DNA from: an uncultured bacterium
Lineage (GTDB): Bacteria; Patescibacteriota; Minisyncoccia; Phycocordibacterales; CAIZLB01
Reading direction: 5' to 3'
Assembly (NCBI GenBank): GCA_903821355.1
Contig: CAIJKW010000039.1
Coordinates: 1-56,484, forward strand
DNA length: 56,484 bases
The notes beneath the pieces are model-generated. The model saw nothing but the letters and a program-made list of their open reading frames with translations, was not told the DNA's origin and did no database searches. The first letter of the stretch is position 1; the number at the start of each line of letters is the position of its first letter. Shown here piece after piece: positions 13,360 to 55,268 of this stretch. The position numbers were made by a program, and so were the translations under genes.

Positions 13360-13383
13360 GATAATTCTCCATTTTTCTTAAGA

Positions 13384-14331: not shown

Positions 14332-14355
14332 TTCACTCCCTTGTTATCTATAATA

Positions 14356-14383: not shown

Positions 14384-14386
14384 AAC

Positions 14387-23597: not shown

Positions 23598-24106
23598 GAA
23601 GGAAAGTCCCTTTCATTAGTTACATTTATCTTGAGACCATAGGCGTGACCCCAACCGTCAATCGCAGTTTTTACCTGACACTCAACACTACTTCTATGAC
23701 TGTTATAGTCATGTCCTGCCACTATCCCTCCTTTGTGAACCTTTTTAGACCATGTGTCAACGTCGTCAATTATGTATCTAAAGCTATGGTTCGCATCCAG
23801 ATAAACAAAATCCAAAGACTCATCTTTAAACTGCTTTACTGCGTCCATTGACCAACCTTTAATGATCGTACAAGTATAAGGTTTTAGAAGTTTTTTAGTT
23901 TCTTCATAGTATCTGTCTAATTTGTCTTGTCTAGTGTGGTCACGATAGCCCTTGTAAACCGTCCAGGCATCTATACAGGAGAGTTTTAGCTTAGGATTGG
24001 CATCTAGTAGGGTTTTAGCAAAGTAACCCCTCTCCGTGCCTATCTCAGCCCCTTTGTTAAATTTCAATTCTGCGAAATGTTTTGCTAGTTCTTCTCTGTT
24101 TTCCAT
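23576..24106 (-). CDS. class I SAM-dependent methyltransferase (Methyltransf_24/TylF-like, probably sugar O-methylation)
   Basis: 176 aa. GAEIGTERGYFAKTLL (motif I-like) and LDFVYLDANHSF are present. Embedded among the glycosyltransferases. Confidence 0.6.
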   Translation of the reverse strand: MENREELAKHFAELKFNKGAEIGTERGYFAKTLLDANPKLKLSCIDAWTVYKGYRDHTRQDKLDRYYEETKKLLKPYTCTIIKGWSMDAVKQFKDESLDFVYLDANHSFRYIIDDVDTWSKKVHKGGIVAGHDYNSHRSSVECQVKTAIDGWGHAYGLKINVTNERDFPSWFYTKL

Positions 24107-24684
24107 ATCAACTCCTTCCTAATATTTAGTCCCCAAGAATCTGTTTTTCTATGACAGCCAACACACAAAGTTGTTCCATTATCTACTTCAAACCAAAGTT
24201 CTTCATGTTCACAAAATGGTTTTATGTGGTGTGGTTGTAATGTTACTTTTTTTCCATTTCCACCCCTTATTCCACACTCTTGGCAGGTATAATTATCTCT
24301 TTCAAAAACTGACTCTCTCCATTCTCTATATTCAGAAGATTTTCTGATTGCTTTATTTCTAGGAGTAACGCCACCCTTCCAATTATAGTTATTGCTGCCA
24401 GTATTTCTTTCAATTAACATTTTTTTGACATGGTCTGGCATCTTATGTCCCATCAGTGCTTCACTTAATTTCTTCTTGGTTTCTTCTTTTATCCTATACC
24501 CCAAGTGAGCTTGTCTTATATTCTCCTTGCCCTGTTCAGACATCGGTTTGTATTTTTTGCCAAGATGGGATAATCTAATTTTATTTTTAGTTTCTTCAGA
24601 AAGTTTTTTACCAGTATTCGCAATACTAAGTTTTAGTTTAGTTTCTTCAGACGTTGGTTTACGTTTAAATATTCCTGTTGGCAT
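24085..24684 (-). mobile_element. free-standing HNH homing endonuclease with NUMOD3 repeats
   Basis: 199 aa. Repeated SEETKxKLS..xxGKK units (NUMOD3-like), then NYNWKGG, then YTCQECG...HHIKPF...NGTTLCVGCHRK (HNH). Wedged between the methyltransferase and glycosyltransferase genes. Confidence 0.8.
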
Positions 24685-24686
24685 CT

Positions 24687-25559
24687 TTACTTATCCTTTC
24701 CGTATCTAATTTGTTCTTTCCAGTCATCTGGCCAATTAGGAACAGGCCAAAATTTCTCAACCAACCAATCAAAATTATGCACCCTATTTTTTAATGGTCT
24801 ATCGTTTATCCAAAAGTCATAAGAATATTTATAACTTTCTTCCGCTTCGCCCTTGTTAAAATGATACATTCGACCGTATGTGCGACCCTTATGCAAGTGA
24901 GCATAACTTGTCGCTTTATTTGTTACCACTCGACCCCCCGTTAACCATGTTGTAAATGAGACCTCCTCACCTTCCTGGCCCCACCCTTTATACCCATCTA
25001 TTTGCATAAAACCGCATCTGTTGTACCAATCCTTGGTCATAAACCAACAACTACCCTGAATAGTCATGGTATCATCTATCATTACATCAACCCTCTCAAG
25101 TGTTCTTGAGTCCCATTTATACCCGTGAAACCCATCTCTTTGCTTAACTGGTTTCCACATCAGATATTCATAATCTATCGGTGGTCTACCTTCCTGGTCT
25201 TGAATTTCCCATCTCTCAGCGTCTAGCCTGTGTCTACGAGGTATCTGAACCCAATTAGACTGATGATCTTTAGCCAGTTGCTCATCAAAACCTTTAGCGA
25301 CTAAGCAGTGAGCGTCTAAACTCATTACATAATCTCCTCTAGACTGTCTAACCATCTCATTAACTCCGTGGCGTTTTTTCATCTCTGGCGTAGATGGTAA
25401 ACGGATATATTTAACCCGTGAATCTTCTATCAGTTCGTCTGGTTCATAACCATCTAAGACTGGGAAGACCTCAATCTCCCCTGTGGCGTTTTCCAAAACA
25501 TCTTTAATGGTTTGGTTTAGAAATTTTTCTCCTTTGCTCGGGATGCAGATACTTAACAT
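24687..25559 (-). CDS. glycosyltransferase, GT-A fold with ppGalNAc-T (GT27)-like motifs; paralogue of the N-domain of 19697..21223
   Basis: 290 aa. Motifs MLSICIPSKGE, SLDAHCLVAKGF (DxH), WGQEGEEVSFTTWLTGG (Gal/GalNAc-T-like) and SYAHLHKG. It ends FDWLVEKFWPVPNWPDDW, matching FDWLLKKFNPPDW in the paralogue. Confidence 0.6.
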   Translation of the reverse strand: MLSICIPSKGEKFLNQTIKDVLENATGEIEVFPVLDGYEPDELIEDSRVKYIRLPSTPEMKKRHGVNEMVRQSRGDYVMSLDAHCLVAKGFDEQLAKDHQSNWVQIPRRHRLDAERWEIQDQEGRPPIDYEYLMWKPVKQRDGFHGYKWDSRTLERVDVMIDDTMTIQGSCWFMTKDWYNRCGFMQIDGYKGWGQEGEEVSFTTWLTGGRVVTNKATSYAHLHKGRTYGRMYHFNKGEAEESYKYSYDFWINDRPLKNRVHNFDWLVEKFWPVPNWPDDWKEQIRYGKDK

Positions 25560-26245
25560 AATTCCTCCTTTATATATTCCATCACATCTTTAGTTGGTTT
25601 CCAATCGGGTGTCGTATTTTTTAAATTAGCGTTCTTTAATTCTCCCTTTCTCCAATCCTCATATTTGATTGGTTTACCAATGGCTTTAGCTATTTCATTT
25701 ACCGAATAATTTTGTTCTGAGCCAAAATAATAAGTTCCTGTCGGCCAGTCGATGGCTTGTTTAATCCCTCTCACTAAATCGTCAATATGAACATAGGTTC
25801 TCATCGCACTTCCATCTCCATAAATTGTGATATCTTCATTTAGAAATTTATCAATTACGCTTCGTGAACCGTGTCCGTAGACATTGGCAAAACGTAAAAT
25901 AACATAATTTTTACTCATCAGTTTGACAAACTTTTCACCACAGAACTTAGAGAGTCCGTAAGGAGATTCTATTGTTTCCTGGATTGTCCCCCCACTTGAG
26001 GCGAAGATAAATTTAGCATCTTTATAATGATTTAAGAGTCTGACCGTACCTGTAATATTGTTATTAACCGTATGTACAGGGTCTTTCATTGAGTTTATTA
26101 CCCCAGGTTGAGCTGCTAGGTGAATTACAACGTCAGCGTCAGGAAGAGGACAAGATAAAATATTCTCTCCATCCTTAAGGTCAATTCCAACATCTGAGGT
26201 TAGATGTCCCCCGATAAACCCTTTGTGCCCCGTAAGTAAGACCAT
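25553..26245 (-). CDS. compact NAD-dependent sugar epimerase/dehydratase (extended SDR)
   Basis: 230 aa. LLTGHKGFIGGHL (GxxGxxG), SSGG, and SPYGLSKFCGE (YxxxK) are present. Shorter than the usual length of about 310 aa. Confidence 0.7.
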   Translation of the reverse strand: MVLLTGHKGFIGGHLTSDVGIDLKDGENILSCPLPDADVVIHLAAQPGVINSMKDPVHTVNNNITGTVRLLNHYKDAKFIFASSGGTIQETIESPYGLSKFCGEKFVKLMSKNYVILRFANVYGHGSRSVIDKFLNEDITIYGDGSAMRTYVHIDDLVRGIKQAIDWPTGTYYFGSEQNYSVNEIAKAIGKPIKYEDWRKGELKNANLKNTTPDWKPTKDVMEYIKEELC

Positions 26246-44100: not shown

Positions 44101-44133
44101 AAAAAAAATAAAATACCCAGCTTTTGGGCTGGG
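44101..44133 (-). terminator. rho-independent-type terminator, oriented for the minus strand (or bidirectional)
   Basis: CCCAGC-loop-GCTGGG (44116-44133). On the minus strand it is followed by TATTTTATTTTTTTT. On the plus strand it lies 86 nt after the 43563..44030 stop but has no T-tail. Confidence 0.4.
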
Positions 44134-44135
44134 GT

Positions 44136-44201
44136 GTGGAGAGGTTCTTTCCGATCCCTTTGGTTCCTCCTTTTGGGTCGCCTTTCTCCTCTCCACGCTT
44201 T
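44136..44201 (+). terminator. long compound hairpin after the early region
   Basis: GTGGAGAGG (44136-44144) pairs with CCTCTCCAC (44188-44196). An inner CGATCCC/GGGTCG stem is present. Followed by GCTTT. Confidence 0.35.
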
Positions 44202-44217: not shown

Positions 44218-44247
44218 TTGACAGAACATAATCTATGGGATTATGAT
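44218..44247 (+). promoter_or_regulatory. sigma70-like promoter of the glycan operon
   Basis: TTGACA (44218-44223), an 18-nt spacer, then TATGAT (44242-44247). Confidence 0.5.
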
Positions 44248-44334
44248 ATAAAAAAGGGGGAAGACAATTAGAAAACGCAGACCTTTGGGTAATGTCTGTA
44301 TAAAAAACTTATCCACAACTTATGAGCAAGTAAC

Positions 44335-44565
44335 AAATTGGGGCAATGTCGAGCCCTGACAACCCCGACTTGAACTTGCCTGTAAGCAAGAGTCGAAAGA
44401 CTATTGGCGTAAAGCACGACTGTTTCTGAGTCTCAGTTCCTCGCCCCGAAAGGGGACTTTGCTGAGGCTCGGTAACTGTTCCGAGGAGCGTTTCAGTAGT
44501 GAGTAGAGAGTTTTCTATACATCTCCCCAACGCCCCCTTGTAGATATTCAAGGAGTAAAGGGCTT
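44335..44565 (+). ncRNA. structured 5' leader (unassigned class) with two GAAA-tetraloop hairpins
   Basis: AGTC-GAAA-GACT (44391-44402), CCCC-GAAA-GGGG (44444-44455), CTGAG-t-CTCAG (44426-44436), and CTCGG-taactgtt-CCGAG. There is no convincing plus-strand ORF across about 330 nt between the promoter and the RBS at 44576. Confidence 0.35.
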
Positions 44566-44585
44566 TATGAAACAAAAGGAGGAAT

Positions 44586-44984
44586 ATGCCAAGTTGGAAC
44601 ACGAGTAAAAACAGACCTGCCGACACTCGATGGTCAAAATACATTAGAACCGAAGCCAGAATGTGCCAATTTGGAATTACTTGCCAACCTAAAGAGAGAT
44701 ATAAAGAGGACGGATCCTTAGACATTAGCTATATGGATTGCGTCCATTTTTATGGTCGGAGAAAAGAAAGCACTCGGTTTGATTCTCAAAATACGCTTAG
44801 CGGATGCAAGGGGTGTCATAAATATTTACACAACCATCCGACCGAGCATAAAGAATTTATGAAAAAATTTCTTGGAAAAGATTTTGACCTTTTAACAATT
44901 CGTGCCAACACCCCTTTAGGTATGCCAAAAGAATTTCAAGACAATAACGTGATTTTATTTTGCAAACAAAAGGAGAAAGAATGA
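44586..44984 (+). CDS. NinG/Rap-like Cys/His nuclease-type protein
   Basis: 132 aa. ADTRWSKYIRTEARMCQFGITC...CVHFYGRRKESTRFDSQNTLSGCKGCHKYL follows the FS.yIR.R...C..C...H...R....R.d..N....C..CH layout of NinG. Confidence 0.4.
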   Translation: MPSWNTSKNRPADTRWSKYIRTEARMCQFGITCQPKERYKEDGSLDISYMDCVHFYGRRKESTRFDSQNTLSGCKGCHKYLHNHPTEHKEFMKKFLGKDFDLLTIRANTPLGMPKEFQDNNVILFCKQKEKE

Positions 44985-46171
44985 AAATTTTATTATATGG
45001 GGATGTTTACTGGGATGCTTCTGGCTACGCAAAGATACTGTCTGACCTTATTCCTGAGTTTTTAAAAGCAGGTCACGAGGTCAGGCAGGTTGGGCTTAAC
45101 TACAACGGGGTCAGCAAGAGAGAAGAATTAATTCAAGTCTATCCTACGAGAGTTTGGGGAGTAAAAAGTCATTGGGCTCCAGAAGCCTTAGAAGTCGCTA
45201 TCAAAGATTTCGAGCCAGAGATTGTTTTTACTATCGGAGATTACTTTGCATTACCTGAAATCGTTCAAGTCTTATCTGCTCCAACTAAAGTTTCTTTTAA
45301 ATGGATTCACTACGGAGTAATGGACGGAGAACCCTTTAATAAAGATTTAATAAGTGCGACCTCTTGGTGTAATTATCATCTCTATCAAGCAGACTTTACC
45401 AAAAGAACAGTTGAAAATGCTATCCCAGGGATTAGAGGAAAAACCATTTACCCCGCCGTTAATAAGGAAGTCTTTCATCCTCTTGAAGAAAAAGAGAAAG
45501 AAGAATTAAGGAAAAATCTTCGAGTTGACGAAACCTTTAATGTCATCTTTGTGGGAAGAAATCAATACCGAAAAAACCTGCCAGCTCTTTTTACTGCTAT
45601 TAAAAAAGTTCATAAAATAATCCCCAATATTAGGTTGATTCATCACTCCATCCCTACGGTTGACCCATCAGGAGCTCCCAATTCTTACGACCTAGAAACC
45701 ATTATCCGAGAAATGGATATTGAGAAATTAGTCTCATATATTCCTGTAACTGAAGGTGGGATTCTGTCATTTGAAGTTGTTAACCAACTCTATAATCTAG
45801 GTGACCTTTTTGTCCTACCGACAATGGGCGAAGGCTTTGGTTTACCTTTAACAGAAGCAATGGCTTGCGGACTTCCTACAATCGGAACAGACTTCTCAGC
45901 GGTAACTGAGGTTATCGGAGACCGAGGTCTCTTAGCTAAGGTCGCTGAATATGTCTACGTTGAGGGCAACTTAAGACACGCTGTCGTTGATACAGATGAC
46001 TTGGCTCAATGTATTTACAGATTAAGTGGTGACCAAGATTTAAGAAAAACCTGTATCGAGAAAGGTTTCAAATTTACTGATACCTTAACGCCAGATAAAG
46101 TCGCCAAAAGAATTTTAAATGTGTTTGAAGAAGTTGTTAAAAAAGATTATCAACCAAAGGCAGTCGAATGA
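44981..46171 (+). CDS. glycosyltransferase, GT-B fold (GT4/GT1 family)
   Basis: ATG 44981 (ATGA overlap, RBS AAAGGAGAAAG). MKILLYGD... ends with the C-terminal signature PTMGEGFGLPLTEAMACGLPTIGTDFSAVTEVI (the E-x7-E region). Confidence 0.85.
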   Translation: MKILLYGDVYWDASGYAKILSDLIPEFLKAGHEVRQVGLNYNGVSKREELIQVYPTRVWGVKSHWAPEALEVAIKDFEPEIVFTIGDYFALPEIVQVLSAPTKVSFKWIHYGVMDGEPFNKDLISATSWCNYHLYQADFTKRTVENAIPGIRGKTIYPAVNKEVFHPLEEKEKEELRKNLRVDETFNVIFVGRNQYRKNLPALFTAIKKVHKIIPNIRLIHHSIPTVDPSGAPNSYDLETIIREMDIEKLVSYIPVTEGGILSFEVVNQLYNLGDLFVLPTMGEGFGLPLTEAMACGLPTIGTDFSAVTEVIGDRGLLAKVAEYVYVEGNLRHAVVDTDDLAQCIYRLSGDQDLRKTCIEKGFKFTDTLTPDKVAKRILNVFEEVVKKDYQPKAVE

Positions 46172-46929
46172 GAGTCACAATTTCTCTTTTAACTTATGGT
46201 TCCCTCCCCTATACAAAACAATGTTTAAAAGCGTTAGTTCATAACACGCCCAAAATTTATAAGTTAGTCATTTTAGACAATAAGTCAAAAGACGATACGG
46301 CTGATTGGATAGTTAACGAATCCAACCTCCCTGACGGAACTGATTTTATGCCAAGTCCCAAGAATTTAGGCTATGGGGGTGGACATAATTTAGTTACTGA
46401 AAAAAAAGGAGATACCGAGTTTATGGTCTTTTTGAACAACGATACTATCCCGATGAAGGGTTGGCTTGAGCCTATGATAGAGGTTATGGATAAGTACCCT
46501 GACTGCGAAGTCGTGGGGAGTAAACTTATCTCACCCTTTCTAGGAGGTCTACAACACGCTGGGGTTAATTTCAAGGGAACCTTTCCCGTTCATCGATTCT
46601 TCAATTTCCCTGTCGATTTTCCCGATGCTAATATTTTAGAACAAGTTCCGGCTGTAACGGGTGCTTGTTTTATGGTTCGAACCAAGACTTTCAAAGAATT
46701 GAAGGGGTTTGACCCTCATTATTTTTGTGGGTGGGAAGATATCGATTATTGTTTAGAGATAAACAAAATGGGGAAAAAGGTTTTTTACCAACCGAAGTCA
46801 GTCCTCCATCACTACGAAGGTAGGAGTGAAGGCAGATTTGTAGCAGAGGATTCAAACAGAGAGTATTTTATGAAAAAGTGGTATAAAGATATAAGTAAAT
46901 GGATAAAGGAGGAGAATGAAAAAGTTTAA
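46168..46929 (+). CDS. glycosyltransferase family 2
   Basis: 253 aa. ISLLTYGSLPYTKQCLKAL..ILDNKSKDDT..FLNNDT..GACFMVRTKTFKELKGFDPHYFCGWEDIDYCLEI. Confidence 0.85.
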   Translation: MRVTISLLTYGSLPYTKQCLKALVHNTPKIYKLVILDNKSKDDTADWIVNESNLPDGTDFMPSPKNLGYGGGHNLVTEKKGDTEFMVFLNNDTIPMKGWLEPMIEVMDKYPDCEVVGSKLISPFLGGLQHAGVNFKGTFPVHRFFNFPVDFPDANILEQVPAVTGACFMVRTKTFKELKGFDPHYFCGWEDIDYCLEINKMGKKVFYQPKSVLHHYEGRSEGRFVAEDSNREYFMKKWYKDISKWIKEENEKV

Positions 46930-47140
46930 AGTAAACTTTGGTCCAAAAGGTTCTAGCACTAACCGAAACTGTTATGAATGTGGTATAGAAGAATTTGACG
47001 AAAGTCGGTTCTATACCAAAAAAGACATTAAGGACATTGGAAACTTGGAAGTTGGTGAAACTTGGATAGACCCCGACAAAGACCTAACAGATATACATCA
47101 TAAACAAAAATCAAATCTCCGTTGTAGGCGATTGGAATGA
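46916..47140 (+). CDS. hypothetical protein
   Basis: 74 aa. RBS AAGGAGGAG. No motif recognised. Confidence 0.4.
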   Translation: MKKFKVNFGPKGSSTNRNCYECGIEEFDESRFYTKKDIKDIGNLEVGETWIDPDKDLTDIHHKQKSNLRCRRLE

Positions 47141-47251
47141 CGAGATAGTACCCAACTACCCTTTTACAATAAAAGTCGATTGTAGGTGGTCTGTGGACTA
47201 CCAGAAAGCAAATTAGAAGATACTTGTATAACATAAATAGGAGGATAAAAA

Positions 47252-47452
47252 ATGTTAACATTGAAAGACCTAGAAAAAAGAAAGAATTTATATTTTTTTC
47301 CTGGAAACGAAAACGGTTTCTCAAAAGAAGCAGCAGAAAATATTTTATATTACAATAATTGGATGGAATATAAAATACCGATATCTCAAGTAACTTCTGA
47401 AGCTTTTGCAAGGATAATTCAAGAAATTGAAATATTAAAAACGAAAGGATAA
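47252..47452 (+). CDS. hypothetical protein
   Basis: 66 aa. RBS TAGGAGGA. Confidence 0.4.
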   Translation: MLTLKDLEKRKNLYFFPGNENGFSKEAAENILYYNNWMEYKIPISQVTSEAFARIIQEIEILKTKG

Positions 47453-47454
47453 AC

Positions 47455-48336
47455 ATGTTAAGCGTAATAATTCCAACATACCAAAGAGAGAGAAATCTAC
47501 CCCTGACACTCACGGCTCTCAAGAATCAAACCAATAAAGATTTTGAGGTCATTGTCGTAGACGATGGCTCAACAGACAAAACAGCCGAGGTGGTTAAAGA
47601 CTTTGATGTTAAGTATTTGTACTTAGGAGAGAATAAAGGCTATCGTCAATCTAGGGCTCGTAATGCGGGAGCGAAGATATCGACGGGGGATTTTCTTTTT
47701 CTTGATGCCGATGTTCTCTTGTTTCCAGATGCGATTGAACTTTTTAAAGAAGACTTAAAGAAAGAAAAAAATAGAGTTATCTGCGGTCGTTATGAGTGGG
47801 GGAATCCGATTGAAATCACAAAAGAAGATGTTGAAAAAAGATTTGATGATGTTGTAAATGAAAGACTTCCTTTTATTCAAGACGCTCAACCTCACGGGAT
47901 GCAAGGAATCCCCGATATAAGAGATGCTATGTTTAATGATCTATCTCCTGAGACTCTTTGTTTCCAAGATGGTCATTACCTAGGAGCTTTCGGTGGAAAC
48001 ATTTTAGTCCCGAGAAAAATCTTTTATGAAATGGGGATTTATAACAAAGTTTATAATACAGAAAATAGTGAGTTTTGCGGATACGACCAACACTTTACTG
48101 CTCCGATAGAAGATGGCGATTTTGGGCTTACCCTAAGAGATGTTGGTTATCCTATTTCTTTCGATAACCGAATAAAAGGCTATCACGTTTGGCATCCTCG
48201 CAATATTTCAGAAATTCAAAGAGTAACAACCGAGCAAATTCCTTACTTAGATGAAAAGCATCACATCGATGTTGTTAAAAAGACACAACAAGTTTACCGA
48301 AGTTGGCTTAAAGATGAAAAGGAGTTAGAGCTATGA
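47455..48336 (+). CDS. glycosyltransferase family 2
   Basis: 293 aa. LSVIIPTYQRERNLPLTLTALKNQTNKDFEVIVVDDGSTDKT...FLDADV (DxD). Confidence 0.85.
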   Translation: MLSVIIPTYQRERNLPLTLTALKNQTNKDFEVIVVDDGSTDKTAEVVKDFDVKYLYLGENKGYRQSRARNAGAKISTGDFLFLDADVLLFPDAIELFKEDLKKEKNRVICGRYEWGNPIEITKEDVEKRFDDVVNERLPFIQDAQPHGMQGIPDIRDAMFNDLSPETLCFQDGHYLGAFGGNILVPRKIFYEMGIYNKVYNTENSEFCGYDQHFTAPIEDGDFGLTLRDVGYPISFDNRIKGYHVWHPRNISEIQRVTTEQIPYLDEKHHIDVVKKTQQVYRSWLKDEKELEL

Positions 48337-48845
48337 TTTACATGGGCAAACATTCCTACTGTGCAAATGACGATATTCACTGTTATGAAAAGCTAGATTT
48401 AATCATTGGAAACTTTTGTAGTATCGCGGCTAGATTAAGAGTAGAAAGTGGTCTACATCCCTGTATTAGAAATCCCCAAGTAGTTTCGCAATATCCTTTT
48501 TATGAACAATGGAAAGTAAGTTATCCACCATCAATAGACGGAGATAATGTCATCATTGGAAACGATGTTTGGGTCGCAGGAAATGTCAGTATTTTAACAG
48601 GGGTAAAAGTGGGTGACGGAGCAATAATAGGCTGTAATTCTGTCGTCACCAAAGATGTTCCACCTTACGCTTTTGTCGCTGGTAATCCTGCAAGAATAAA
48701 AAGTTATCGTTTCTCTCCTGAAATTATTAAAAAGTTATTAGAAATAAAGTGGTGGGACTGGGACGATGAAAAGATAAGATTTGAGGTCATTGTCAATGAA
48801 GATTTTAACGATATTGACAAGTTTATAGAAAAGTGGGGAAAATGA
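48333..48845 (+). CDS. hexapeptide-repeat acetyltransferase (left-handed beta-helix, Vat/CatB-like; probably sugar O-acetylation)
   Basis: 170 aa. VIIGNDVWVAGNVSILTGVKVGDGAIIGCNSVVTKDVPPYAFVAGNPARIKSYRFSPEIIKKLLEIKWWDW. Confidence 0.8.
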   Translation: MIYMGKHSYCANDDIHCYEKLDLIIGNFCSIAARLRVESGLHPCIRNPQVVSQYPFYEQWKVSYPPSIDGDNVIIGNDVWVAGNVSILTGVKVGDGAIIGCNSVVTKDVPPYAFVAGNPARIKSYRFSPEIIKKLLEIKWWDWDDEKIRFEVIVNEDFNDIDKFIEKWGK

Positions 48846-49660
48846 AAACAAGTTTAATTTATCCAGTATTCGATAGGGGGATACTTTTAGAGAATAGCCT
48901 TAAACGCCTTCGCCTTCTCCCGACTCAACCCGATGAAATCATAGTTGTAGACGACGGTTCTGAAAAGGATGATATAAAATCAATCTGTGATAAATTCGGT
49001 TGCGATAAATACATAAGAATAGAAAATCCTCAGTATGATGCCTGTTCAAGACCAAAAAATGTCGGTCTAAAAAAAGCAAGTCACGAAGTCGTTATATACT
49101 CAGAGCCAGAAGTCATGTTTGTTTCTGATGTCATTGGACAAATAGGGGAATTGCTAGAAAAAAACTCAGATAAAATTATTTCCTGTGGAACAATGTTTTT
49201 TGAAAAAAGAAATTTTACATTAGACCATAATAAATCATTAGAAGAAACAATGGAAAATGCTCCCATAAAAGAATGGATACATGGGACAATAGATGTTCAT
49301 GCTGACGACAGTTGCTTGACCAAATCAATTGGAATGATGGCATTATTTACTCTAGGAGCATATAAGAAAAACTTAATTTCTGTCGGTGGATGGGATGAGG
49401 ATATGATGTTGGGAAATGGTGGTGGAGGATATGGGTTTGATGATACCGATTTATGTACAAGGTTACGAGTCAACGGGAATAACCAGTTGGTTGATGAAAA
49501 TTTACAGGCACTACATCAATGGCATGACAGAGTTCCTTTTCCTCAAGCCGATGGGTGGAAAAGAAATGAAGAAATATTCAATTCTAAAAAAATAGATGGG
49601 GATATATCAAAAGAAAATGTTGTTTCAAATAAAAATAGAAAGTGGGGATTCATTGGCTAA
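48842..49660 (+). CDS. glycosyltransferase family 2
   Basis: ATG 48842 (ATGA overlap). MKTSLIYPVFDRGILLENSLKRL..EIIVVDDGSEKDD. Confidence 0.7.
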   Translation: MKTSLIYPVFDRGILLENSLKRLRLLPTQPDEIIVVDDGSEKDDIKSICDKFGCDKYIRIENPQYDACSRPKNVGLKKASHEVVIYSEPEVMFVSDVIGQIGELLEKNSDKIISCGTMFFEKRNFTLDHNKSLEETMENAPIKEWIHGTIDVHADDSCLTKSIGMMALFTLGAYKKNLISVGGWDEDMMLGNGGGGYGFDDTDLCTRLRVNGNNQLVDENLQALHQWHDRVPFPQADGWKRNEEIFNSKKIDGDISKENVVSNKNRKWGFIG

Positions 49661-50054
49661 GAATTGGAACTGCATAGATTGTAATAAGCTAATTTGGAAC
49701 AGATATACCAGATGCCAATCCTGTGCAAAGACAGGAAAACTTAATAACCGTTTTGAAAATGGGCTGAAAGGAAAAGACAACCCCAATTGGCAAGGAGGAA
49801 TATCCATGGATAAGCATACCTATAATTTTAAGAAAAAACTTTCACCAACAATTAGGAGAATTATGCCAAGATGTCAACAATGTTATACAGATAAAGATTT
49901 AGTTGTCCATCATATAGATTATAATAAAAGAAACGACCAAACTAATAATCTCATCACTCTTTGTCGTTCGTGCAATGCTAAGGTAAACTTTCATAAAGAA
50001 AATTATCGTCTATTATTAAGTTATAAGCGTGAAAAAGGAATGATAAAATTATGA
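49596..50054 (+). mobile_element. free-standing HNH homing endonuclease
   Basis: 152 aa. CIDCNK..CQSCAK..NPNWQGG, then PRCQQCYTDKDLVVHHIDYNKRNDQTNNLITLCRSCNAKVN. The 5' end overlaps the GT2 gene by 65 nt, so the true start is uncertain. Confidence 0.8.
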
Positions 50055-50542
50055 ACAACTTGAATTTAGGCTGTGGGAACGTCAAACAAAAGGACTGGGT
50101 CGGGATTGATATCAGAAACTTCCCCGAAGTTGACTATGTGATGAATGTTGGCAAAGAACCCCTGCCCTTTATGAATAATTCAGTAGATAAGATCCACGCT
50201 GACCATCTTTTTGAACACTTCTATCCAGAAGAGCTTTTCTTTTGTGTCGAAGAATGTTTTAGAGTTTTAAAACCAAAGGGACATCTCTTGGTTTCCGTTC
50301 CTAAGGGAAATTCTCCCGCTTTCTACATTCACCCAGACCATAAGATTCATTTTATGGAAGATACTTTCGCCTTCTTCCAAGTCCCAGCAGATGGGAAAGA
50401 TATTTTGGGATACTTAAAGGGGTTTTGGCATATCACTATACTACAGGGGTCAAATCCTCACGCTTTTTCTGTTGAAATGTATCCAAACAAACCAAGAGGA
50501 AAGTATAAGTATAAAAAAATTAAATTATTAGGAGAACTATGA
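50051..50542 (+). CDS. class I SAM-dependent methyltransferase
   Basis: 163 aa. LNLGCGNVKQKDWVGIDI ... VDKIHADHLFEHF ... RVLKPKGHLLV (Methyltransf_11-like). Confidence 0.7.
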   Translation: MNNLNLGCGNVKQKDWVGIDIRNFPEVDYVMNVGKEPLPFMNNSVDKIHADHLFEHFYPEELFFCVEECFRVLKPKGHLLVSVPKGNSPAFYIHPDHKIHFMEDTFAFFQVPADGKDILGYLKGFWHITILQGSNPHAFSVEMYPNKPRGKYKYKKIKLLGEL

Positions 50543-51546
50543 AAATCTTAGTTACTGGTGGGGCGGGATTTATCGGCACAAATATCTGTTTAAAAGCACT
50601 TGAGAAAGGTCACAAAGTAATCGCTTTTGACTCATTGATTAGAAAGGGTGTTGAAGATAATATCCTAGACGATAAGAATTACACTCTAATTAGGGGGGAT
50701 GTCCGAAGCAAAGAAGATTTGAAAAGAATCGGAAAAATAGATGGCGTGTTTCACCTCGCCGCTAACCCTGGCATCCCGTGGTCTATCAATAATCCAATGT
50801 ATGATTTCGAAGTAAACGCTGGGGGGACTTTGAATCTTTTAGAATTAGCCAGAGAAAGAAAAGTCCCTTTAATCTACGCTTCGACTAACAAGGTTTATTC
50901 AGATAAGGTAAATACTATACCTTTAGTAGAAGGAAAAACGAGATATTCATACAAAGACACTAAGGGCATAAAAGAAACCTTTCCCCTTGATGCCCAAGGA
51001 AGATTTTCTCACTCTCCTTACGGGTGTTCCAAGTTAGCAGGAGATATTTACTGCCAAGAATACTTTCACACCTTTGGCGTTCAGACCGTTGTGAATAGAA
51101 TGTCCTGTATCTATGGTCAACATCAAATGGGTGTTTCCGACCAAGGTTGGGTTGCTTGGTTTATGATTGCCAAACTTTTAAATTTACCTCTTACTATTTA
51201 CGGAGATGGCAAACAAGTTAGAGATTGTCTCTACGGAGAAGATGTCGCTGAACTTTACTTAATGGAATTGGAGAACATAAAAACACACGCAGGTCAAGTG
51301 TACAACATTGGTGGTGGACCAGAGAATACAATAAGCGTCAATGAACTTATAAGTTGGATAGATGAGTATGGTGGAAAGATGAAAAAGACCTATACAAAGT
51401 GGCGACCAGCTGACCATAAAGTTTACATTTCTGACATAACAAAAATTTCTAAGTATTGGAAACCCAAAACTTCTTTAGAATTAGGATTAACCGAAACCTT
51501 TGATTGGGTTGAAGCAAACATAGACTCCATTGAAAGGACTCTATGA
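50539..51546 (+). CDS. NAD-dependent sugar epimerase (extended SDR; CDP-paratose 2-epimerase-like)
   Basis: 335 aa. KILVTGGAGFIGTN, SPYGCSKLAGDIY (YxxxK), and RMSCIYGQHQMGVSDQGWVAWF, which resembles the QGW.GWF segment of the paratose/tyvelose epimerases. Confidence 0.75.
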   Translation: MKILVTGGAGFIGTNICLKALEKGHKVIAFDSLIRKGVEDNILDDKNYTLIRGDVRSKEDLKRIGKIDGVFHLAANPGIPWSINNPMYDFEVNAGGTLNLLELARERKVPLIYASTNKVYSDKVNTIPLVEGKTRYSYKDTKGIKETFPLDAQGRFSHSPYGCSKLAGDIYCQEYFHTFGVQTVVNRMSCIYGQHQMGVSDQGWVAWFMIAKLLNLPLTIYGDGKQVRDCLYGEDVAELYLMELENIKTHAGQVYNIGGGPENTISVNELISWIDEYGGKMKKTYTKWRPADHKVYISDITKISKYWKPKTSLELGLTETFDWVEANIDSIERTL

Positions 51547-52154
51547 ACGCTGAATTAAATTCTTGGATTTGTCATAGCGAAGAAGAGAGAGAAAGGAAAG
51601 CCGAAAGAGAATTTTGTCGTTATCCTAAACTAATCGAAGAGATGGGTCTTTACTTAATCAGAACTGATAATAAGATAGTCCTAGATATCGGTTGTGGTCC
51701 AAGAGGGATTTTATCTTGTCTAGAGGCTAGACTTAAAATAGGCCTTGACCCTTTAATAGATGAGTATAAAAAGTATTATGATTTAACCTTTTTAGATGTC
51801 ACGAAAAAAGGCGTGGGCGAAAAGATTCCTTTTACTAATGATTCATTTGACCTTGTGACTTCTGTTAATAGTTTAGACCACTGTTCAAATCCTATTAAAG
51901 TCGTTAACGAGATTCGCAGAGTCTTAAAACCTTCAGGATATTTTGGGGTTCACTTCTGTTTAGACCTAGCTAAGAACAATCCTCACCCCTCTCACTCACT
52001 CAATATAAGTAAAAAGAAATTTCACGATATGATTGATTCAGATTTTGAGACAGTTCACGAAAAAGAAGTAAAGTATGGTTGGGTCAAGCATCAAGGCAAG
52101 GTCGGTGAACCAGCCCTCGCTGGATTATTTAGATTGACCACCAAAGGAGCGTAA
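51543..52154 (+). CDS. class I SAM-dependent methyltransferase
   Basis: 203 aa. VLDIGCGPRGIL ... FDLVTSVNSLDHCSNPIKVVNEIRRVLKPSGYF. Confidence 0.75.
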   Translation: MNAELNSWICHSEEERERKAEREFCRYPKLIEEMGLYLIRTDNKIVLDIGCGPRGILSCLEARLKIGLDPLIDEYKKYYDLTFLDVTKKGVGEKIPFTNDSFDLVTSVNSLDHCSNPIKVVNEIRRVLKPSGYFGVHFCLDLAKNNPHPSHSLNISKKKFHDMIDSDFETVHEKEVKYGWVKHQGKVGEPALAGLFRLTTKGA

Positions 52155-53092
52155 TGGAAAAAGTCGTAATTGCTGGTGGTGCGGGATACCTAGGTTCACA
52201 TTTAGCCGACAGGATTTGCGACCGATATGATGTTTATATTGTCGACAGCTTAGTTACGGGAAGATTAGAAAATATCAATCATTTACTAAGACTTAACCAA
52301 GTCAGATTTATACAAGATTCTATCGAGAATATTAACTACTTAAACTTAGGAAAAGTCGACAAGGTTTTTCACTTAGCCTCAATTGCTAGTCCAAAAGTCT
52401 ACCAAGAACTTCCCCTAGAAACAGCGATGGCAAACTCAGCGGGGACTTTAGCCGTTCTTAACTTTGCCAAAAATAATGGAGCAAAAGTTTTATATACTTC
52501 TACAAGTGAAGTTTATGGCGACCCCCAGGTAAATCCTCAACCAGAAACCTACTATGGTTCAGTTAATTGTCACGGAATCCGTGCTTGTTATGATGAGTCT
52601 AAAAGATTTGGTGAAACCCTTTGTTTTATTTTTAAAGATTATGTCGACGTTAAAATAGTTCGTTTGTTCAATTCTTACGGTCCAAGGATGAACCCAGAAG
52701 ATGGACGAGTCTTTACAACCTTTATTTCTCAAGCGTTACGGGGAGAGTCTCTAACCATATATCAGGGAGAACAAACCCGTTCTTTCTGTTATTCCTCAGA
52801 TACCATTGATGGAATTTTGAAAGTAATGGAATTTGGAGATTCAAATCCTTATAATATTGGTAACCCAGATGAAAGAAAAATAATAGAAGTTGCCGAACTT
52901 GTCATCAAATTAACGGGCTCAAAGAGCAGATTAAGAATTTGCCCCTTACCCAAAGATGACCCCAAGAAAAGATGTCCAGATATCTCTCGAGTCAAGGAGC
53001 TGGGGTGGAATCCTAAAATAGATTTAGAAGAAGGTTTAAGTTTAATGATTAAGAAAGTGAAGGAGGAGTTATGTTTGACAGGAAAGTTGTAA
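52154..53092 (+). CDS. UDP-glucuronate decarboxylase (UDP-xylose synthase)-like SDR
   Basis: 312 aa. VIAGGAGYLGSHLADRI. HLASIASPKVYQELPLETAMANSAGTLAVLNFAKNNGAKVLYTSTSEVYGDPQVNPQPETYYGSVNCHGIRACYDESKRFGETLC is colinear with the UXS signature HLASPASP..Y..NP..T...N..GT.N.LGLAKR.GA..L.ASTSEVYGDP..HPQ.E.YWG.VN..G.R.CYDEGKR.AE. Confidence 0.8.
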   Translation: MEKVVIAGGAGYLGSHLADRICDRYDVYIVDSLVTGRLENINHLLRLNQVRFIQDSIENINYLNLGKVDKVFHLASIASPKVYQELPLETAMANSAGTLAVLNFAKNNGAKVLYTSTSEVYGDPQVNPQPETYYGSVNCHGIRACYDESKRFGETLCFIFKDYVDVKIVRLFNSYGPRMNPEDGRVFTTFISQALRGESLTIYQGEQTRSFCYSSDTIDGILKVMEFGDSNPYNIGNPDERKIIEVAELVIKLTGSKSRLRICPLPKDDPKKRCPDISRVKELGWNPKIDLEEGLSLMIKKVKEELCLTGKL

Positions 53093-53877
53093 AAGTAAAG
53101 ACGGGTATCTATGGTTGTGGAATGGTAGGGGGAGCGATGAAGTATCTTTTCCCAGACTCTCTAGTTTATGACCTAGACCCAACAAGAGCAAATGCGACCA
53201 AGAAAGACCTGAACAAATGCGAAGTGGTTTTTATCTGCGTTCCCACTGATGGAACAGACGAAGGATACGATTATAATCCCCTTAGAGAAGCGATTGACTC
53301 ACTAGACTCCCCAATCATCGTTATTAAGTCTACGGTTCAACCAGGGACCACTCAGTGGCTCCAGAAGATGACTAAGAGCGACCTTGTGTTCAGCCCTGAA
53401 TTTTTAAGAGAAAAACATCGTTTTGAGGACATTGATAGGGAAACAAGAATTATTTTAGGAACAAATAGTAAATCTACTTTCGAACTTTTAAGAGATTTAT
53501 ATTTTGAATCTTATGACTCAGACAAAGTAGAAGTTCTACAAACAGAACCAATTATTGCCGAATTTGTTAAGTTGATAAATAATTCTTTCTTGGCGACTAA
53601 GGTTACTTTTTGTAACGAGGTTAAGAAAATAGTCAATAAACACGGGATAGACTATGAAGAAGTTCGTAAGTTATGGCTAACCGATAAACGAATCGGACGG
53701 AATCATACCATCGTTACAAAAGACGGTGGTTTTTCTGGTTATTGTTTGCCCAAAGATTTAAGGGCGATGATAAATACGGCTGAAAAATTAAGTTATGACG
53801 CTGAGTTTCTAAAGTCTGTCTGGGATGCAAACTGTGATTTTAGAAAAGAATACAAGGACAAAAAATATGTACGCTAG
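53071..53877 (+). CDS. UDP-glucose/GDP-mannose 6-dehydrogenase-like protein lacking the C-terminal domain
   Basis: 268 aa. GIYGCGMVGGAM (Rossmann), VFICVPT, IKSTVQPGTT, SPEFLREKH, AEFVKLINNSFLATKVTFCNE, and GGFSGYCLPKDL (catalytic Cys motif). It ends about 40 aa after the catalytic Cys. Confidence 0.7.
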   Translation: MFDRKVVKVKTGIYGCGMVGGAMKYLFPDSLVYDLDPTRANATKKDLNKCEVVFICVPTDGTDEGYDYNPLREAIDSLDSPIIVIKSTVQPGTTQWLQKMTKSDLVFSPEFLREKHRFEDIDRETRIILGTNSKSTFELLRDLYFESYDSDKVEVLQTEPIIAEFVKLINNSFLATKVTFCNEVKKIVNKHGIDYEEVRKLWLTDKRIGRNHTIVTKDGGFSGYCLPKDLRAMINTAEKLSYDAEFLKSVWDANCDFRKEYKDKKYVR

Positions 53878-54556
53878 TCTCTGTGTTCTTAGCTATGAAA
53901 GATTGCCTTACTTAAAGAGGATGATGGAATCATTATTAGAAATTAAGGCTGGGGTTGAATATGAACTAATCGTTCACGATGATGGAAGCGACCCAGAAGT
54001 AAAGGACTATCTCTATACCCTTCTAAAGGAAGGAAAAATTTCTTATTTAATCCTAAATGGTGGAAAAAATAGAGGAATTGGAGAAGCTGTTAGAAATTGT
54101 TTTAAGGTAGCTTCAGGAGATTATCTTTTTAAACTAGATACTGACTTAGAATTTAAGGAAGGTTGGCTCAAAACAGCGGTGGATATTTTAGACAAACCAG
54201 ATGTCGGATGTGTTTCACTTCTCAACTATAACAATTACAATCCAGAAGATGATAGATTCAAAACAAGAGAAGACAGGGGGGATTACTTAATAGTTAGTGA
54301 TTTTATCTCTTGTTTATATGGAGTAAGGCGAGCAATCTATGAAAAAAACAAGGATAGTCTTGATACCGACGGATGGCACAAAACTATTGATAATTATCCA
54401 TTTGAACCTTGGGATAAGGGAGAACAACTTGCTATCTCAAAAGAAGATATGATTACTAACTTTGGGTTTGGTCTTGGAAAAAGTATTTATGTTAAACAAA
54501 ATGAAAAAGGAGAGATTGTTACGACAGAAACACACAAAGAACCTTTGATTTTTTAG
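53867..54556 (+). CDS. glycosyltransferase family 2
   Basis: ATG 53867 is preferred. MYASLCVLSYERLPYLKRMMESLLEIKAGVEYELIVHDDGSDPEV...KLDTDLEF. Confidence 0.75.
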   Translation: MYASLCVLSYERLPYLKRMMESLLEIKAGVEYELIVHDDGSDPEVKDYLYTLLKEGKISYLILNGGKNRGIGEAVRNCFKVASGDYLFKLDTDLEFKEGWLKTAVDILDKPDVGCVSLLNYNNYNPEDDRFKTREDRGDYLIVSDFISCLYGVRRAIYEKNKDSLDTDGWHKTIDNYPFEPWDKGEQLAISKEDMITNFGFGLGKSIYVKQNEKGEIVTTETHKEPLIF

Positions 54557-54563
54557 GAGGAAT

Positions 54564-55268
54564 ATGAGAGGGATATTAGTCGCAGGTAAAAATACCAGAC
54601 CACATGGCAGGTATATTGAAAATAAATATTTTATTAGAATCTATGATAAGCCGTTAATAATGTATCCATTTTTAACTCTAGTTAATATGGGGATTAAAGA
54701 TATCTTAATAATCATAAGTTCTGATGGAGGGAGTATTATTAACTTACTCCAAGACGGTATCGAGTTTGGAGTTAATATAACTTACGCCTATCAAAAAGAC
54801 CCACTTGGAATCGCTCATGCTATTGGAAAAGCTGAAGATTTTGCTCAAGGAGACGATATAGTGGTCGTACTAGGGGATAGTATTTTTACTAAAGATATTG
54901 AGATAAAAGCCCCTCCACACCTTTATCTATCCCATTCGGACTGTCCCAAAGATTTCGGGGCAGTTTGTTTTTATGGTGAGAATATTATGAAAATAGAAGA
55001 AAGATGCGAAAATCCCAAAAGTAAATTCGTAACTACGGGGATATATATTTATCCCAATAATGTTTTTAAAGTAATCAAAAAGTTAAAAGTATCTAAAAGA
55101 AATAAATTAGAAATATCAGACATAAACAATCATTACTTACCAAAAATGGCGTACACAATTCTTGATGATGGGGTTTGGTTTGATACCAACGACCCAGAGC
55201 AAGTGTATAACGCCATTTTTAAGGCAAGGTTAAATCACCTAGAAATAAAAGCTATTTCCCAGCGATAG
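54564..55268 (+). CDS. sugar-1-phosphate nucleotidyltransferase (RmlA/GalU-like) with a degenerate G-x-G-T-R loop
   Basis: 234 aa. GILVAGKNTRPHG replaces the usual LAGGxGTRLxP. Also YDKPLIMYPFLTLVNMGIKDILII, QKDPLGIAHAIGKAEDF and VVVLGDSIF. Confidence 0.65.
   Translation: MRGILVAGKNTRPHGRYIENKYFIRIYDKPLIMYPFLTLVNMGIKDILIIISSDGGSIINLLQDGIEFGVNITYAYQKDPLGIAHAIGKAEDFAQGDDIVVVLGDSIFTKDIEIKAPPHLYLSHSDCPKDFGAVCFYGENIMKIEERCENPKSKFVTTGIYIYPNNVFKVIKKLKVSKRNKLEISDINNHYLPKMAYTILDDGVWFDTNDPEQVYNAIFKARLNHLEIKAISQR

Follow-up and report, generated by a model that had tools for sequence, protein, structure and literature searches.

The question raised by this locus is what a tailed phage would build with an operon of about 11 kb for sugar activation, glycosyl transfer and glycan tailoring, and onto which acceptor the product would be placed. 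The operon lies on the + strand of a contig of 56,484 nucleotides from an uncultivated tailed phage (the window, i.e. the whole stretch of DNA analysed), beside the replication genes and outside the structural block, and its ORFs are intact and tightly packed. Profile and sequence searches recovered all twelve enzyme classes of a preliminary description as intact + strand ORFs where it had placed them, and thus confirmed the enzyme identities behind the term sugar-activation and glycan-tailoring operon; an HNH endonuclease and two small ORFs, which that list had passed over, also lie inside. The features are:

44218..44247, + strand: sigma70-like promoter candidate, TTGACA-18-TATGAT, a consensus match only (11/12)
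44248..44585, + strand: structured untranslated leader of ~340 nt (MFE -108 kcal/mol, z -5.0)
44586..44984, + strand: NinG/Rap-like junction endonuclease gene, non-glycan (phrog_5034, E 5.9e-10)
44981..46171, + strand: GT4 (GT-B) glycosyltransferase, core (PF00534, 6e-18)
46168..46929, + strand: glycosyltransferase GT2a, core (PF00535, 8e-16; kept in L003 and L005)
46916..47140, + strand: 74-aa ORF of no family, not found in relatives
47252..47452, + strand: 66-aa ORF, 111-nt gap before its start
47455..48336, + strand: glycosyltransferase GT2b, core (PF00535, 4e-30)
48333..48845, + strand: hexapeptide-repeat O-acetyltransferase (Vat/CatB-like), accessory (Vat family, E 3e-34)
48842..49660, + strand: glycosyltransferase GT2c, core (PF00535, 7e-11; 78% identity in L003)
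49596..50054, + strand: HNH homing-type endonuclease (PF01844, 4e-6)
50051..50542, + strand: SAM methyltransferase, core (family match, Methyltransf_11)
50539..51546, + strand: CDP-tyvelose 2-epimerase-like extended SDR, putative NDP-hexose 2-epimerase, core (sequence match)
51543..52154, + strand: SAM methyltransferase, core (family match, Methyltransf_11/23)
52154..53092, + strand: UDP-glucuronate decarboxylase (UDP-xylose synthase, UXS), accessory (human UXS1, E 4e-85)
53071..53877, + strand: short two-domain nucleotide-sugar 6-dehydrogenase (UGDH-like), 268 aa, core, no UDP-binding domain
53867..54556, + strand: glycosyltransferase GT2d (PF00535, 6e-19)
54564..55268, + strand: RmlA-like sugar-1-phosphate nucleotidyltransferase, accessory, divergent G-loop

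The operon had been described as standing behind its own promoter and a long leader, with almost all genes coupled through ATGA overlaps. A sigma70-like site does occupy exactly 44218-44247, yet the evidence for a promoter is weak because a scan of the region found four such sites against 2.0 +/- 1.4 in shuffles. The structured leader, which has no Rfam match and is not conserved in relatives, accounts for only the first part of the supposed leader, the remainder of which is the NinG/Rap-like gene, preceded by a strong AAGGAGG ribosome-binding site and joined to GT4 by an ATGA overlap. Coupling proved less uniform than described: twelve of the 15 junctions overlap but only seven are of the ATGA type, and three are gaps of 2, 7 and 111 nt.

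The core of the operon, consisting of GT4, GT2a to GT2d, both methyltransferases, the extended SDR (SDR335) and the short UGDH-like dehydrogenase (short UGDH), is syntenic at 40-78% identity in two other phage contigs, L003 and L005, the former being the closest relative (MCP 72%, TerL 74% identical). GT4, with orthologues of 65% identity in L003 and 40% in L005, has generic relatives among solved structures (BshA, MshA, 6kih), and it reaches 20 bits with the GtfA model (cut-off 574). The closest solved relative of GT2b is the GalNAc-transferase (A1) half of the chondroitin polymerase K4CP (residues 94-298, E 6e-23; next match 1.7e-10), and GT2d, which directly follows short UGDH in all three related phages, weakly matches the start of the second, GlcA-transferase half of the same enzyme (residues 377-491, E 4e-6). 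The acetyltransferase, whose score falls under the Vat equivalog cut-off, is seen only in the present phage, its gene being absent from L003 and L005, while the HNH endonuclease has an orthologue of 58% identity at the same place in L005. No operon protein contains a hydrophobic segment, the maximum 19-residue Kyte-Doolittle mean being 1.57 compared with 2.72 for the tape measure protein, and Pfam and PHROG scans of the window ORFs found no Wzx, Wzy, GtrA or GtrC types.

We put at roughly 55% the probability that the operon constitutes a self-sufficient cytoplasmic glycan-building module by which the phage glycosylates phage proteins; most plausibly, the glycan coats its own Ser/Pro-repeat fibre proteins. 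We infer the substrates, the order of the steps, the acceptor and the location of the glycoprotein on the virion as follows. The RmlA-like enzyme would provide NDP-glucose, which short UGDH would oxidize, most likely as UDP-Glc, to the uronic acid, and UXS would decarboxylate UDP-GlcA to UDP-xylose, while the tyvelose-epimerase-like SDR may supply a 2-epimer. Subsequently, one GT4 and four soluble GT2s would build a hetero-oligosaccharide, to be tailored by two methyltransferases and one acetyltransferase. The glycan would be placed on a soluble phage protein and not on a lipid carrier, the most likely acceptors here being two proteins with SPS repeats, the Ser residues of which would first be primed by the polypeptide-GalNAc-transferase-like enzymes of a second gene cluster. 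These features are:

19697..26245, - strand: cluster 1, outside the operon, glycan genes and others
14387..19696, - strand: 1769-aa SPS-repeat protein, candidate glycan acceptor, adjoining cluster 1
2651..4249, - strand: 532-aa tail-region protein with ~180 aa of SPS repeats, second candidate acceptor

Cluster 1 comprises genes for a compact SDR, a GT27-like glycosyltransferase (290 aa), an HNH-NUMOD3 protein, a Methyltransf_24 protein, a 219-aa unknown protein, a DNA methylase and a two-domain GT27-like glycosyltransferase (508 aa). Together with the operon it yields 17 putative glycan genes covering 24% of the window, in agreement with the earlier estimate of about 17 genes and a quarter of the genome. 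All significant PDB sequence matches of the cluster-1 glycosyltransferases are polypeptide GalNAc-transferases, which also make up nearly all of the top 50 Foldseek matches (E about 1e-14) of the predicted structure (pLDDT 91), the remainder being E. coli K4 chondroitin polymerase. In the 1769-aa protein, a Gly-rich N-terminal part is followed by SPSxS repeats over ~1130 aa, and the C-terminal domain is 70 aa long. Hundreds of IMG/VR contigs, as well as Patescibacteria MAGs, show this pairing of glycosyltransferase and repeat protein. Directly downstream of the 508-aa glycosyltransferase homologue, 51 of 66 IMG/VR loci have an S/T/P-rich ORF measuring 300 aa or more, and ORFs of this kind occur in 64/80 loci of such homologues versus 3/80 control viral loci. 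Of the 80 loci, 37 have short UGDH within 10 kb of the homologue, often immediately beside it, and in a phage with a 92% identical glycosyltransferase short UGDH forms one continuous block with the cluster-1 genes.

These neighbourhoods favour the Ser/Pro-repeat target proposed in the preliminary description, whereas L003 carries the operon but lacks cluster 1 between its portal and protease genes, the portal being followed directly by the protease, and shows no long SPS-repeat ORF in the ~31 of 46 kb read (about two-thirds). The 10 kb size difference between L003 and the present phage matches the 11.9 kb of cluster 1 plus repeat protein. Hence, the operon does not strictly depend on SPS proteins, and the assignment of the target is tentative. 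The position of the operon among the replication genes and the altered G-loop of the RmlA-like protein also count against the favoured reading.

The situation in L003 would also fit remodelling of the host envelope, an unlikely reading in which the operon alters a wall polymer or a lipid-linked glycan, for instance to block superinfection or to keep progeny off debris. At the inner membrane face, soluble glycosyltransferases can also act on acceptors that are lipid-linked or wall polymers, and wall teichoic acid is known to be modified by soluble glycosyltransferases of phages. Moreover, the operon adjoins the lysis genes both in the window and in L003, and the N-terminal 115 residues of GT2b match PHROGs annotated 'GtrB-like'. 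On the other hand, host-envelope modification is disfavoured by the lack of membrane segments throughout the operon proteins and by the window, in which no flippase, polymerase, ligase or GtrC-type enzyme was detected. Since neither an integrase nor a repressor was seen, lysogenic conversion is unlikely as well, and twelve genes would be a heavy cost for a transient effect. The linkage of short UGDH to the glycosyltransferase/SPS-protein pair in many phages likewise speaks against it.

For the glycosylation of phage proteins, the activated-sugar supply likely includes a route to UDP-xylose in which the dehydrogenase is unusually short. The evidence for UXS is strong: the match to human UXS1 spans residues 3-306 at 48% identity (next class 4e-38), and the alignment retains the TSE, YxxxK and Arg positions. 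SDR335 matches two solved CDP-tyvelose 2-epimerases with E values of 6e-75 and 1.5e-71 (next class 3.5e-34). In the RmlA-like protein, which is 36% identical in L003 and absent from L005, AGKNTRP replaces the GGxGTRL loop. Of the canonical sequence UDP-Glc to UDP-GlcA to UDP-Xyl, as originally proposed, the second step would fall to the strongly assigned UXS, an accessory gene absent from L003 (a UXS-like gene occupies the same place in L005), while the first step is one we infer, since the dehydrogenase departs from canonical UGDHs. Solved UGDHs all possess the C-terminal UDP-binding domain missing here, and no separate window ORF supplies one; the substrate of short UGDH, the window's sole such dehydrogenase, is therefore uncertain. 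The protein belongs to a large short family common in viral contigs, in which GxGxxG and the catalytic Thr, Glu, Glu, Lys, Asn, Cys and Asp are kept (26 family members), and its predicted structure (pLDDT 94) fits the first two UGDH domains with a TM of 0.83 by query length and 0.5 by target length.

It is rather improbable that this protein is no UDP-glucose dehydrogenase but oxidizes acceptor-bound glucose or another substrate, with UXS drawing on host UDP-GlcA. The C-terminal domain is missing in 80/80 viral homologues and nowhere separately encoded, short UGDH stands most often beside a glycosyltransferase, and it is retained in L003 without UXS. Against this, all residues acting on the sugar C6 and NAD are kept, and UXS-like genes lie directly upstream of short UGDH, overlapping it, in two of the three related phages. 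Immediate neighbours at 80 viral loci are mostly nucleotide-sugar enzymes, namely SDR epimerases/dehydratases (24/128 ORFs), besides GT2s (18/128). To our knowledge, no member of this family has been known to act on a bound sugar.

That the glycosyltransferases place sugars on modified phage DNA bases and so evade restriction is highly improbable. In its favour, the operon comes after the genes of DNA metabolism, with coupling to the NinG-like nuclease gene, phage clusters glycosylating 5hmC or 5hoC exist (10.1101/2023.12.21.572611; PMC13326640), DNA arabinosyltransferases match the same generic GT-B enzymes as GT4, and two DNA methylases are present. However, both are of the N6/N4 and not the C5 type, Pfam searches of every ORF of at least 200 aa found no thymidylate-synthase (ThyA) homologue, TET/JBP dioxygenase, dNMP kinase or dCTPase, and no described DNA-sugar cluster is as large as the present set of eight glycosyltransferases, at least three O-methyltransferase-like proteins and one acetyltransferase, the described ones making mono- to tri-saccharides (10.1101/2023.12.21.572611; PMC13326640).

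Among known systems, the cluster-1 glycosyltransferases share with polypeptide GalNAc-transferases (CAZy GT27) the GT-A catalytic fold and the WGGEN...H motif region, and their genes adjoin those of S/P-rich tandem-repeat proteins, reminiscent of mucin-type O-glycosylation; however, identity is only 15-18%, the ricin-type lectin domain is absent, donor and acceptor are putative, and the 508-aa enzyme resembles K4CP in possessing a second GT-A-like half. Gram-positive serine-rich-repeat glycoproteins (GtfA/GtfB, accessory Sec) likewise display very long Ser-x dipeptide repeats, which are O-glycosylated by cytoplasmic soluble glycosyltransferases and then O-acetylated, but the candidate initiating enzymes here are GT-A rather than GT-B, and no GtfB or accessory Sec genes were found in the present phage. 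Canonical UGDH-UXS pairs, present in bacterial MAG loci, resemble the operon in the adjacency of dehydrogenase and decarboxylase genes but lack the short two-domain form of the dehydrogenase found here; a true UXS neighbour of that form was seen at only two of the loci examined, those of the present window and L005. In chloroviruses and mimivirus fibrils, both nucleotide-sugar enzymes, including UGDH, and glycosyltransferases are virus-encoded, as here; xylose and methylated sugars occur in the glycans, which cover virion proteins or fibrils (PMC4691112). Those viruses infect eukaryotes, have genomes of several hundred kb or more and encode a full-length UGDH, whereas the present phage is tailed, measures 56 kb and has a truncated UGDH along with SDRs of bacterial type. 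Mycobacteriophage systems comprise a few glycosyltransferase and methyltransferase genes and are not known to include any for nucleotide-sugar synthesis, and their targets are the C-terminal tails of capsid and tail-tube subunits. The present phage, on the contrary, possesses 17 genes including its own sugar-activation steps, and its MCP and tube lack such tails, the candidate acceptors being long SPS-repeat proteins. The likeness is that mycobacteriophages, too, encode glycosyltransferases and methyltransferases, with which their own structural proteins are decorated in the cytoplasm of the host (Freeman et al. 2023, as summarised in PMC12619734). Taken together, the glycan machinery of this phage is far above that described for any cultured phage.

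The window spans an entire contig of 56,484 bp and represents a siphovirus-like phage with a CHAP lysin encoded at the contig end, the main gene blocks being the following:

0.3 to 32 kb, minus strand: tail fibre-like proteins, tape measure and tail tube
0.3 to 32 kb, minus strand: lambda-E-type major capsid protein (MCP), gpD-like decoration protein, head protease and Mu-like portal
0.3 to 32 kb, minus strand: intein-bearing large terminase and small terminase
32.7 to 44 kb, plus strand: replication and recombination genes
44218-55268, plus strand: the glycan operon under study

Megablast of the window and of the operon against 50,697 GenBank phage records returned no match, and the capsid protein shares at most 28% identity with any of these records. 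Neither tRNAs nor a terminal repeat were found in the window. Homing-type elements are numerous in this phage and comprise the LAGLIDADG endonuclease domain in the intein of the large terminase (28225-30909, minus strand) and three HNH genes (24085-24684, 21569-21994 and 49596-50054), with two such elements residing within glycan clusters. The Pfam match of a 573-aa N6/N4 DNA methylase (21220-22941, minus strand) breaks at roughly residues 316-458; at this break the 141-aa HNH-like ORF 21569-21994 is located on the same strand in another frame, and both frames are open across the insert.

The operon itself is real. Each of the enzyme classes named in the preliminary description, among them a GT4, four GT2 enzymes (GT2a to GT2d), two methyltransferases (MTs) and an acetyltransferase, which is of the Vat/CatB hexapeptide type, was found as an intact plus strand ORF; the annotation is largely right and the interpretation placed on it partly supported. 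The 'long leader' survives in part: a sigma70-like site at 44218 (11 of 12 positions matching) is followed by an untranslated 340-nt stretch (44248-44585, plus strand) whose folding beats every shuffle (z -5.0), with no Rfam match for the leader or within the whole window. The remainder is a NinG/Rap-like gene that ends in an ATGA overlap with the start of GT4, and hence the leader is partly a gene. The 340-nt stretch shows no conservation in related phages; it is closely preceded, at 44116-44200, by a long inverted repeat and by a terminator-like hairpin on the minus strand. A 155-aa protein encoded at 43563-44030 (plus strand) carries a hydrophobic N-terminal segment and has no Pfam match, while its C-terminal part resembles, by eye, Gram-positive aggregation-promoting-factor domains or transglycosylase-like ones. 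Within the operon, the enzyme genes are accompanied by two small ORFs devoid of a family and by a gene for an HNH endonuclease. ATGA coupling at almost all junctions had been claimed too widely, as only seven of the 15 junctions are of this form; twelve overlap and three have gaps.

The firmest enzyme call of the operon is the product of 52154-53092 (plus strand), strongly predicted to be a UDP-glucuronate decarboxylase, or UDP-xylose synthase (UXS). It aligns to human UXS1 over residues 3-306 with an E-value of 4e-85, the next SDR class reaching 3.7e-38, and its GGAGYLGSH, STSEVYGDP, ACYDESKR and GEQTRSF segments align with residues of the human enzyme. The GxxGxxG NAD site, the Thr/Glu pair, the YxxxK pair and the active-site-closing Arg are all kept, the roles of these residues being presumably those of their counterparts in hUXS1. 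UXS-like genes of more than 38% identity occur in about ten of the 50,697 GenBank phage records, mostly unannotated gut contigs. 'Aphanizomenon phage Yong-DA', which encodes a UXS and a full-length UDP-glucose dehydrogenase (UGDH), was rejected as a comparator because these genes lie within an exopolysaccharide cluster of the bacterial Wzy/Wzc type. By a similar comparison, the 335-aa SDR is by a wide margin closest to two solved CDP-tyvelose 2-epimerases (6e-75 and 1.5e-71, next class 3.5e-34) and is thus probably CDP-tyvelose/paratose 2-epimerase-like. The nucleotidyltransferase encoded at 54564-55268 has the NTP_transferase fold (PF00483, 5e-28) and is RmlA-like (1.4e-35); given its loop AGKNTRP instead of GGxGTRL and a TIGR01207 score of 135, below the NCBIfam equivalog cut-off of 361, it is predicted to be a relative of RmlA rather than RmlA itself.

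With regard to the proposed UDP-Glc to UDP-GlcA to UDP-Xyl pair, the decarboxylase assignment is therefore strong, whereas the dehydrogenase is truncated and UDP-glucose its presumed substrate. This 268-aa protein (53071-53877, plus strand; hereafter short UGDH) comprises only the NAD-binding domain PF03721 (2.6e-14) and the central domain PF00984 (4e-24), aligns to residues 76-281 of a 393-aa UGDH and ends about 40 residues past the catalytic Cys, the C-terminal UDP-sugar-binding domain PF03720 being absent. All of the best 120 homologues among 5.8 billion proteins measure 235-307 aa, and in each of 80 IMG/VR loci encoding a relative the protein ends about 14 residues beyond the aligned region; hence, the truncation is no local accident. 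The usual C-terminal domain of 130-145 residues is present in 62 of 80 genome loci versus none of the 80 IMG/VR loci. A split UGDH was ruled out since the window encodes no C-terminal domain: an HMM of 61 canonical C-terminal domains gave a best E-value of 3, and the sole tblastn match was a GT domain fused to a bacterial UGDH ORF. Nevertheless, T88, E110, K167, N171, C225, D229 and the NAD loop are invariant in 26 members of the short family and E114 is kept in at least 90% of them, these seven residues constituting what we take to be the UGDH catalytic set. The AlphaFold model (pLDDT 94) superimposes on UGDH structures with a TM score of 0.83 by query and about 0.5 by target length, and the NCBIfam NDP-sugar dehydrogenase score is 157 against a cut-off of 190. 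Short forms annotated as 'UDP-glucose dehydrogenase' adjoin a glycosyltransferase in Microbacterium phages and are also carried by Campylobacter phages, and in 80 viral loci the genes immediately flanking the short UGDH mostly encode SDR epimerases/dehydratases and GT2s. TOD1/MUCI70 GT-like domains are likewise among its neighbours in other loci, and in several IMG/VR contigs (L090, L103 and L116; about 11070-20790) it is directly followed downstream by an ORF of some 3200 aa which is not S/T/P-rich.

These findings lead to the conclusion that the short UGDH is a probably active sugar 6-dehydrogenase of glycan synthesis. The best support for UDP-glucose as the substrate comes from the UXS-type gene, which overlaps the short UGDH gene in the window and directly precedes it in the related phage contig L005 (E 2e-69 to human UXS1); a less likely alternative is that the dehydrogenase oxidises glucose which has already been transferred. 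The family poses the question of how substrate is bound in the absence of a UDP-binding domain. Exact look-up of the protein in public assemblies gave no record, and single-protein scans found no relatives of the short UGDH in the genome and viral collections or of the portal in the genome collection, such relatives requiring alignment-based queries.

The operon is syntenic in two other phage contigs, L003 and L005, with core identities of 40-78%. The shared core comprises the GT4, GT2a to GT2c, a 163-aa MT, the tyvelose-epimerase-like SDR, a 203-aa MT, the short UGDH and GT2d, while the acetyltransferase is confined to the window, UXS is not in L003 and the nucleotidyltransferase is not in L005. 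From the lack of UXS in L003 it follows that the xylose branch is accessory to an older module. As regards the product, the GalNAc-transferase half of chondroitin polymerase is by a wide margin the closest match of GT2b (6e-23 versus 1.7e-10 for the next match). The best match of GT2d, which follows the short UGDH in all three related phages, is weak and falls at the beginning of the glucuronyl-transferase half of the E. coli enzyme (K4CP; 4e-6). Together with UXS, these matches suggest, as a lead, that uronic acid and xylose may be part of the product.

A second group of glycan genes, cluster 1 (19697..26245, minus strand), is situated directly upstream of the gene for a 1769-aa protein (14387..19696, minus strand), which consists of a Gly-rich N-terminal part, about 1130 residues of long SPSxS repeats and a 70-aa C-terminal domain; a 532-aa tail-region protein (2651..4249, minus strand) contributes about 180 further SPSxS repeat residues. 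The two GT2-annotated proteins of cluster 1, of 290 aa and of 508 aa (the latter at 19697-21223, minus strand), are paralogues, and their only significant PDB sequence matches are polypeptide GalNAc-transferases (E 3e-6 and 6e-6). For the model of the 508-aa enzyme (pLDDT 91), the Foldseek top 50 are nearly all ppGalNAc-Ts at E-values of about 1e-14, the rest being K4CP. Alignment of K4CP over both halves, the C-terminal half as a second GT-A domain, suggests two GT-A domains in this enzyme, and Pfam reported no ricin-type lectin domain. From the sequence and structure matches, both are predicted to be polypeptide GalNAc-transferase-like GT-A enzymes closest to GT27. A compact 230-aa SDR (25553-26245, minus strand), matching the Epimerase profile at positions 50-227 only, takes the first place in cluster 1, and a 219-aa protein devoid of a family match (22938-23597, minus strand; 85% identical in locus L170) accompanies GT27-like genes in many loci.

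With E <= 1e-20 as the limit, the 508-aa GT family encompasses at least 5953 protein clusters, and members at 48-70% identity are encoded in 377 IMG/VR loci, yet the family corresponds to no PHROG and has no match in the 50,697 GenBank phage records. In 51 of the 66 IMG/VR loci with room for it, the GT gene is closely followed, on its own strand, by an S/T/P-rich ORF of 300 aa or more; overall, such an ORF is present in 64 of 80 GT loci versus three of 80 control viral and two of 80 genome loci, and the repeats elsewhere take the same SPSxS form. In addition, the short UGDH gene lies within 10 kb of a 508-aa-type GT in 37 of 80 loci, in many of them ending exactly at the GT start. A phage with a 92%-identical GT has the order short UGDH, GT, Methyltransf_24, 219-aa ORF without family and 508-aa GT, the first place thus being held by the short UGDH where the window has the SDR. 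Since the only short UGDH of the window is the one in the operon, it is this association elsewhere that ties the two clusters together most strongly.

A Patescibacteria host is a reasonable, if tentative, inference. Among 26 GTDB genome loci with the 508-aa GT family, 20 belong to Patescibacteria (including Saccharibacteria, Zambryskibacteria, Paceibacterota and Woesebacteria) and one to a DPANN archaeon, and the short UGDH likewise finds its best full-length cellular matches mostly in Patescibacteria or DPANN. Several of the 26 loci are on large contigs (130-570 kb). The regions flanking the GT/SPS module there are partly phage-like and partly not, with a tail-collar domain in one case and TPR, IS200 and dockerin proteins in others, so some copies may be cellular rather than prophage. 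The small biosynthetic capacity of Patescibacteria would explain why the phage brings its own sugar-nucleotide enzymes.

Concerning the target, no operon protein has a hydrophobic segment and no flippase, polymerase, ligase or GT-C enzyme was detected in the window, which speaks for a soluble acceptor. None of the MCP, decoration protein and tail tube carries an S/T-rich tail such as those of mycobacteriophages. We hold with moderate confidence that the operon glycosylates phage proteins, and with less that the SPS-repeat proteins are the acceptors. The latter proposal, already made in the preliminary description, gains from the comparative link between cluster 1 and the short UGDH but is set back by L003. 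This closest relative (MCP 72%, TerL 74% and tube 65% identical), in which a protease gene directly follows the portal gene, has the syntenic operon and no long SPS ORF in the approximately 31 of 46 kb read, and its size difference to the window of 10 kb approximates the 11.9 kb of cluster 1 plus repeat protein. Within the part read, the operon thus predates these acceptors and its target in L003 must be something other than SPS proteins. The fullest reading, to which we assign a probability of roughly 0.3, is that small tailed phages of one lineage, with Patescibacteria as their probable hosts, build mucin- or proteoglycan-like fibres autonomously: GT27-like enzymes would start O-glycans on the SPS repeats, phage-encoded nucleotide sugars would supply glucuronic acid, xylose and both methylated and acetylated sugars for lengthening the chains, and a new two-domain class of sugar 6-dehydrogenase would function without a UDP-binding domain.

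That the operon modifies the host envelope instead is rather improbable. Lipid-linked or wall polymers can serve soluble GTs as acceptors, and the lysis genes adjoin the operon, but nothing membrane-bound is encoded in the operon and no lysogeny genes were seen in the window. Serotype conversion of the Gtr type (GtrA/GtrB/GtrC) would furthermore call for a flippase, a membrane-anchored bactoprenol GT and a GT-C transferase, none of which was detected in the window, and GT2b matches GtrB-like PHROGs over its N-terminal 115 residues only. Sugar hypermodification of phage DNA is very unlikely, as it requires a thymidylate-synthase homologue or a 5mC dioxygenase making a hydroxylated base, neither of which was found by a Pfam scan of all ORFs of at least 200 aa, and both DNA methylases are of the N6/N4 type.

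About a quarter of the 56 kb genome is devoted to glycan synthesis, or a third with the candidate acceptor. Two components appear worth testing, namely the truncated UGDH family and the GT27-like enzymes paired with SPS-repeat proteins. Searches of a limited body of literature found no description of this operon type, the short UGDH or phage GT27-like enzymes. Uncultivated phages very commonly carry the wider GT/repeat-protein module, which is absent from the 50,697 GenBank phage records. Protein glycosylation by phages involves a handful of genes in mycobacteriophages, and to our knowledge giant eukaryotic viruses are the only ones to encode the full pathway, from the activation of sugars to the tailoring of the glycan. 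If the proposed reading is true, such an autonomous glycosylation strategy exists also in ordinary tailed phages, and compared with the mycobacteriophage case the system is a new, much larger form of phage-encoded protein glycosylation.
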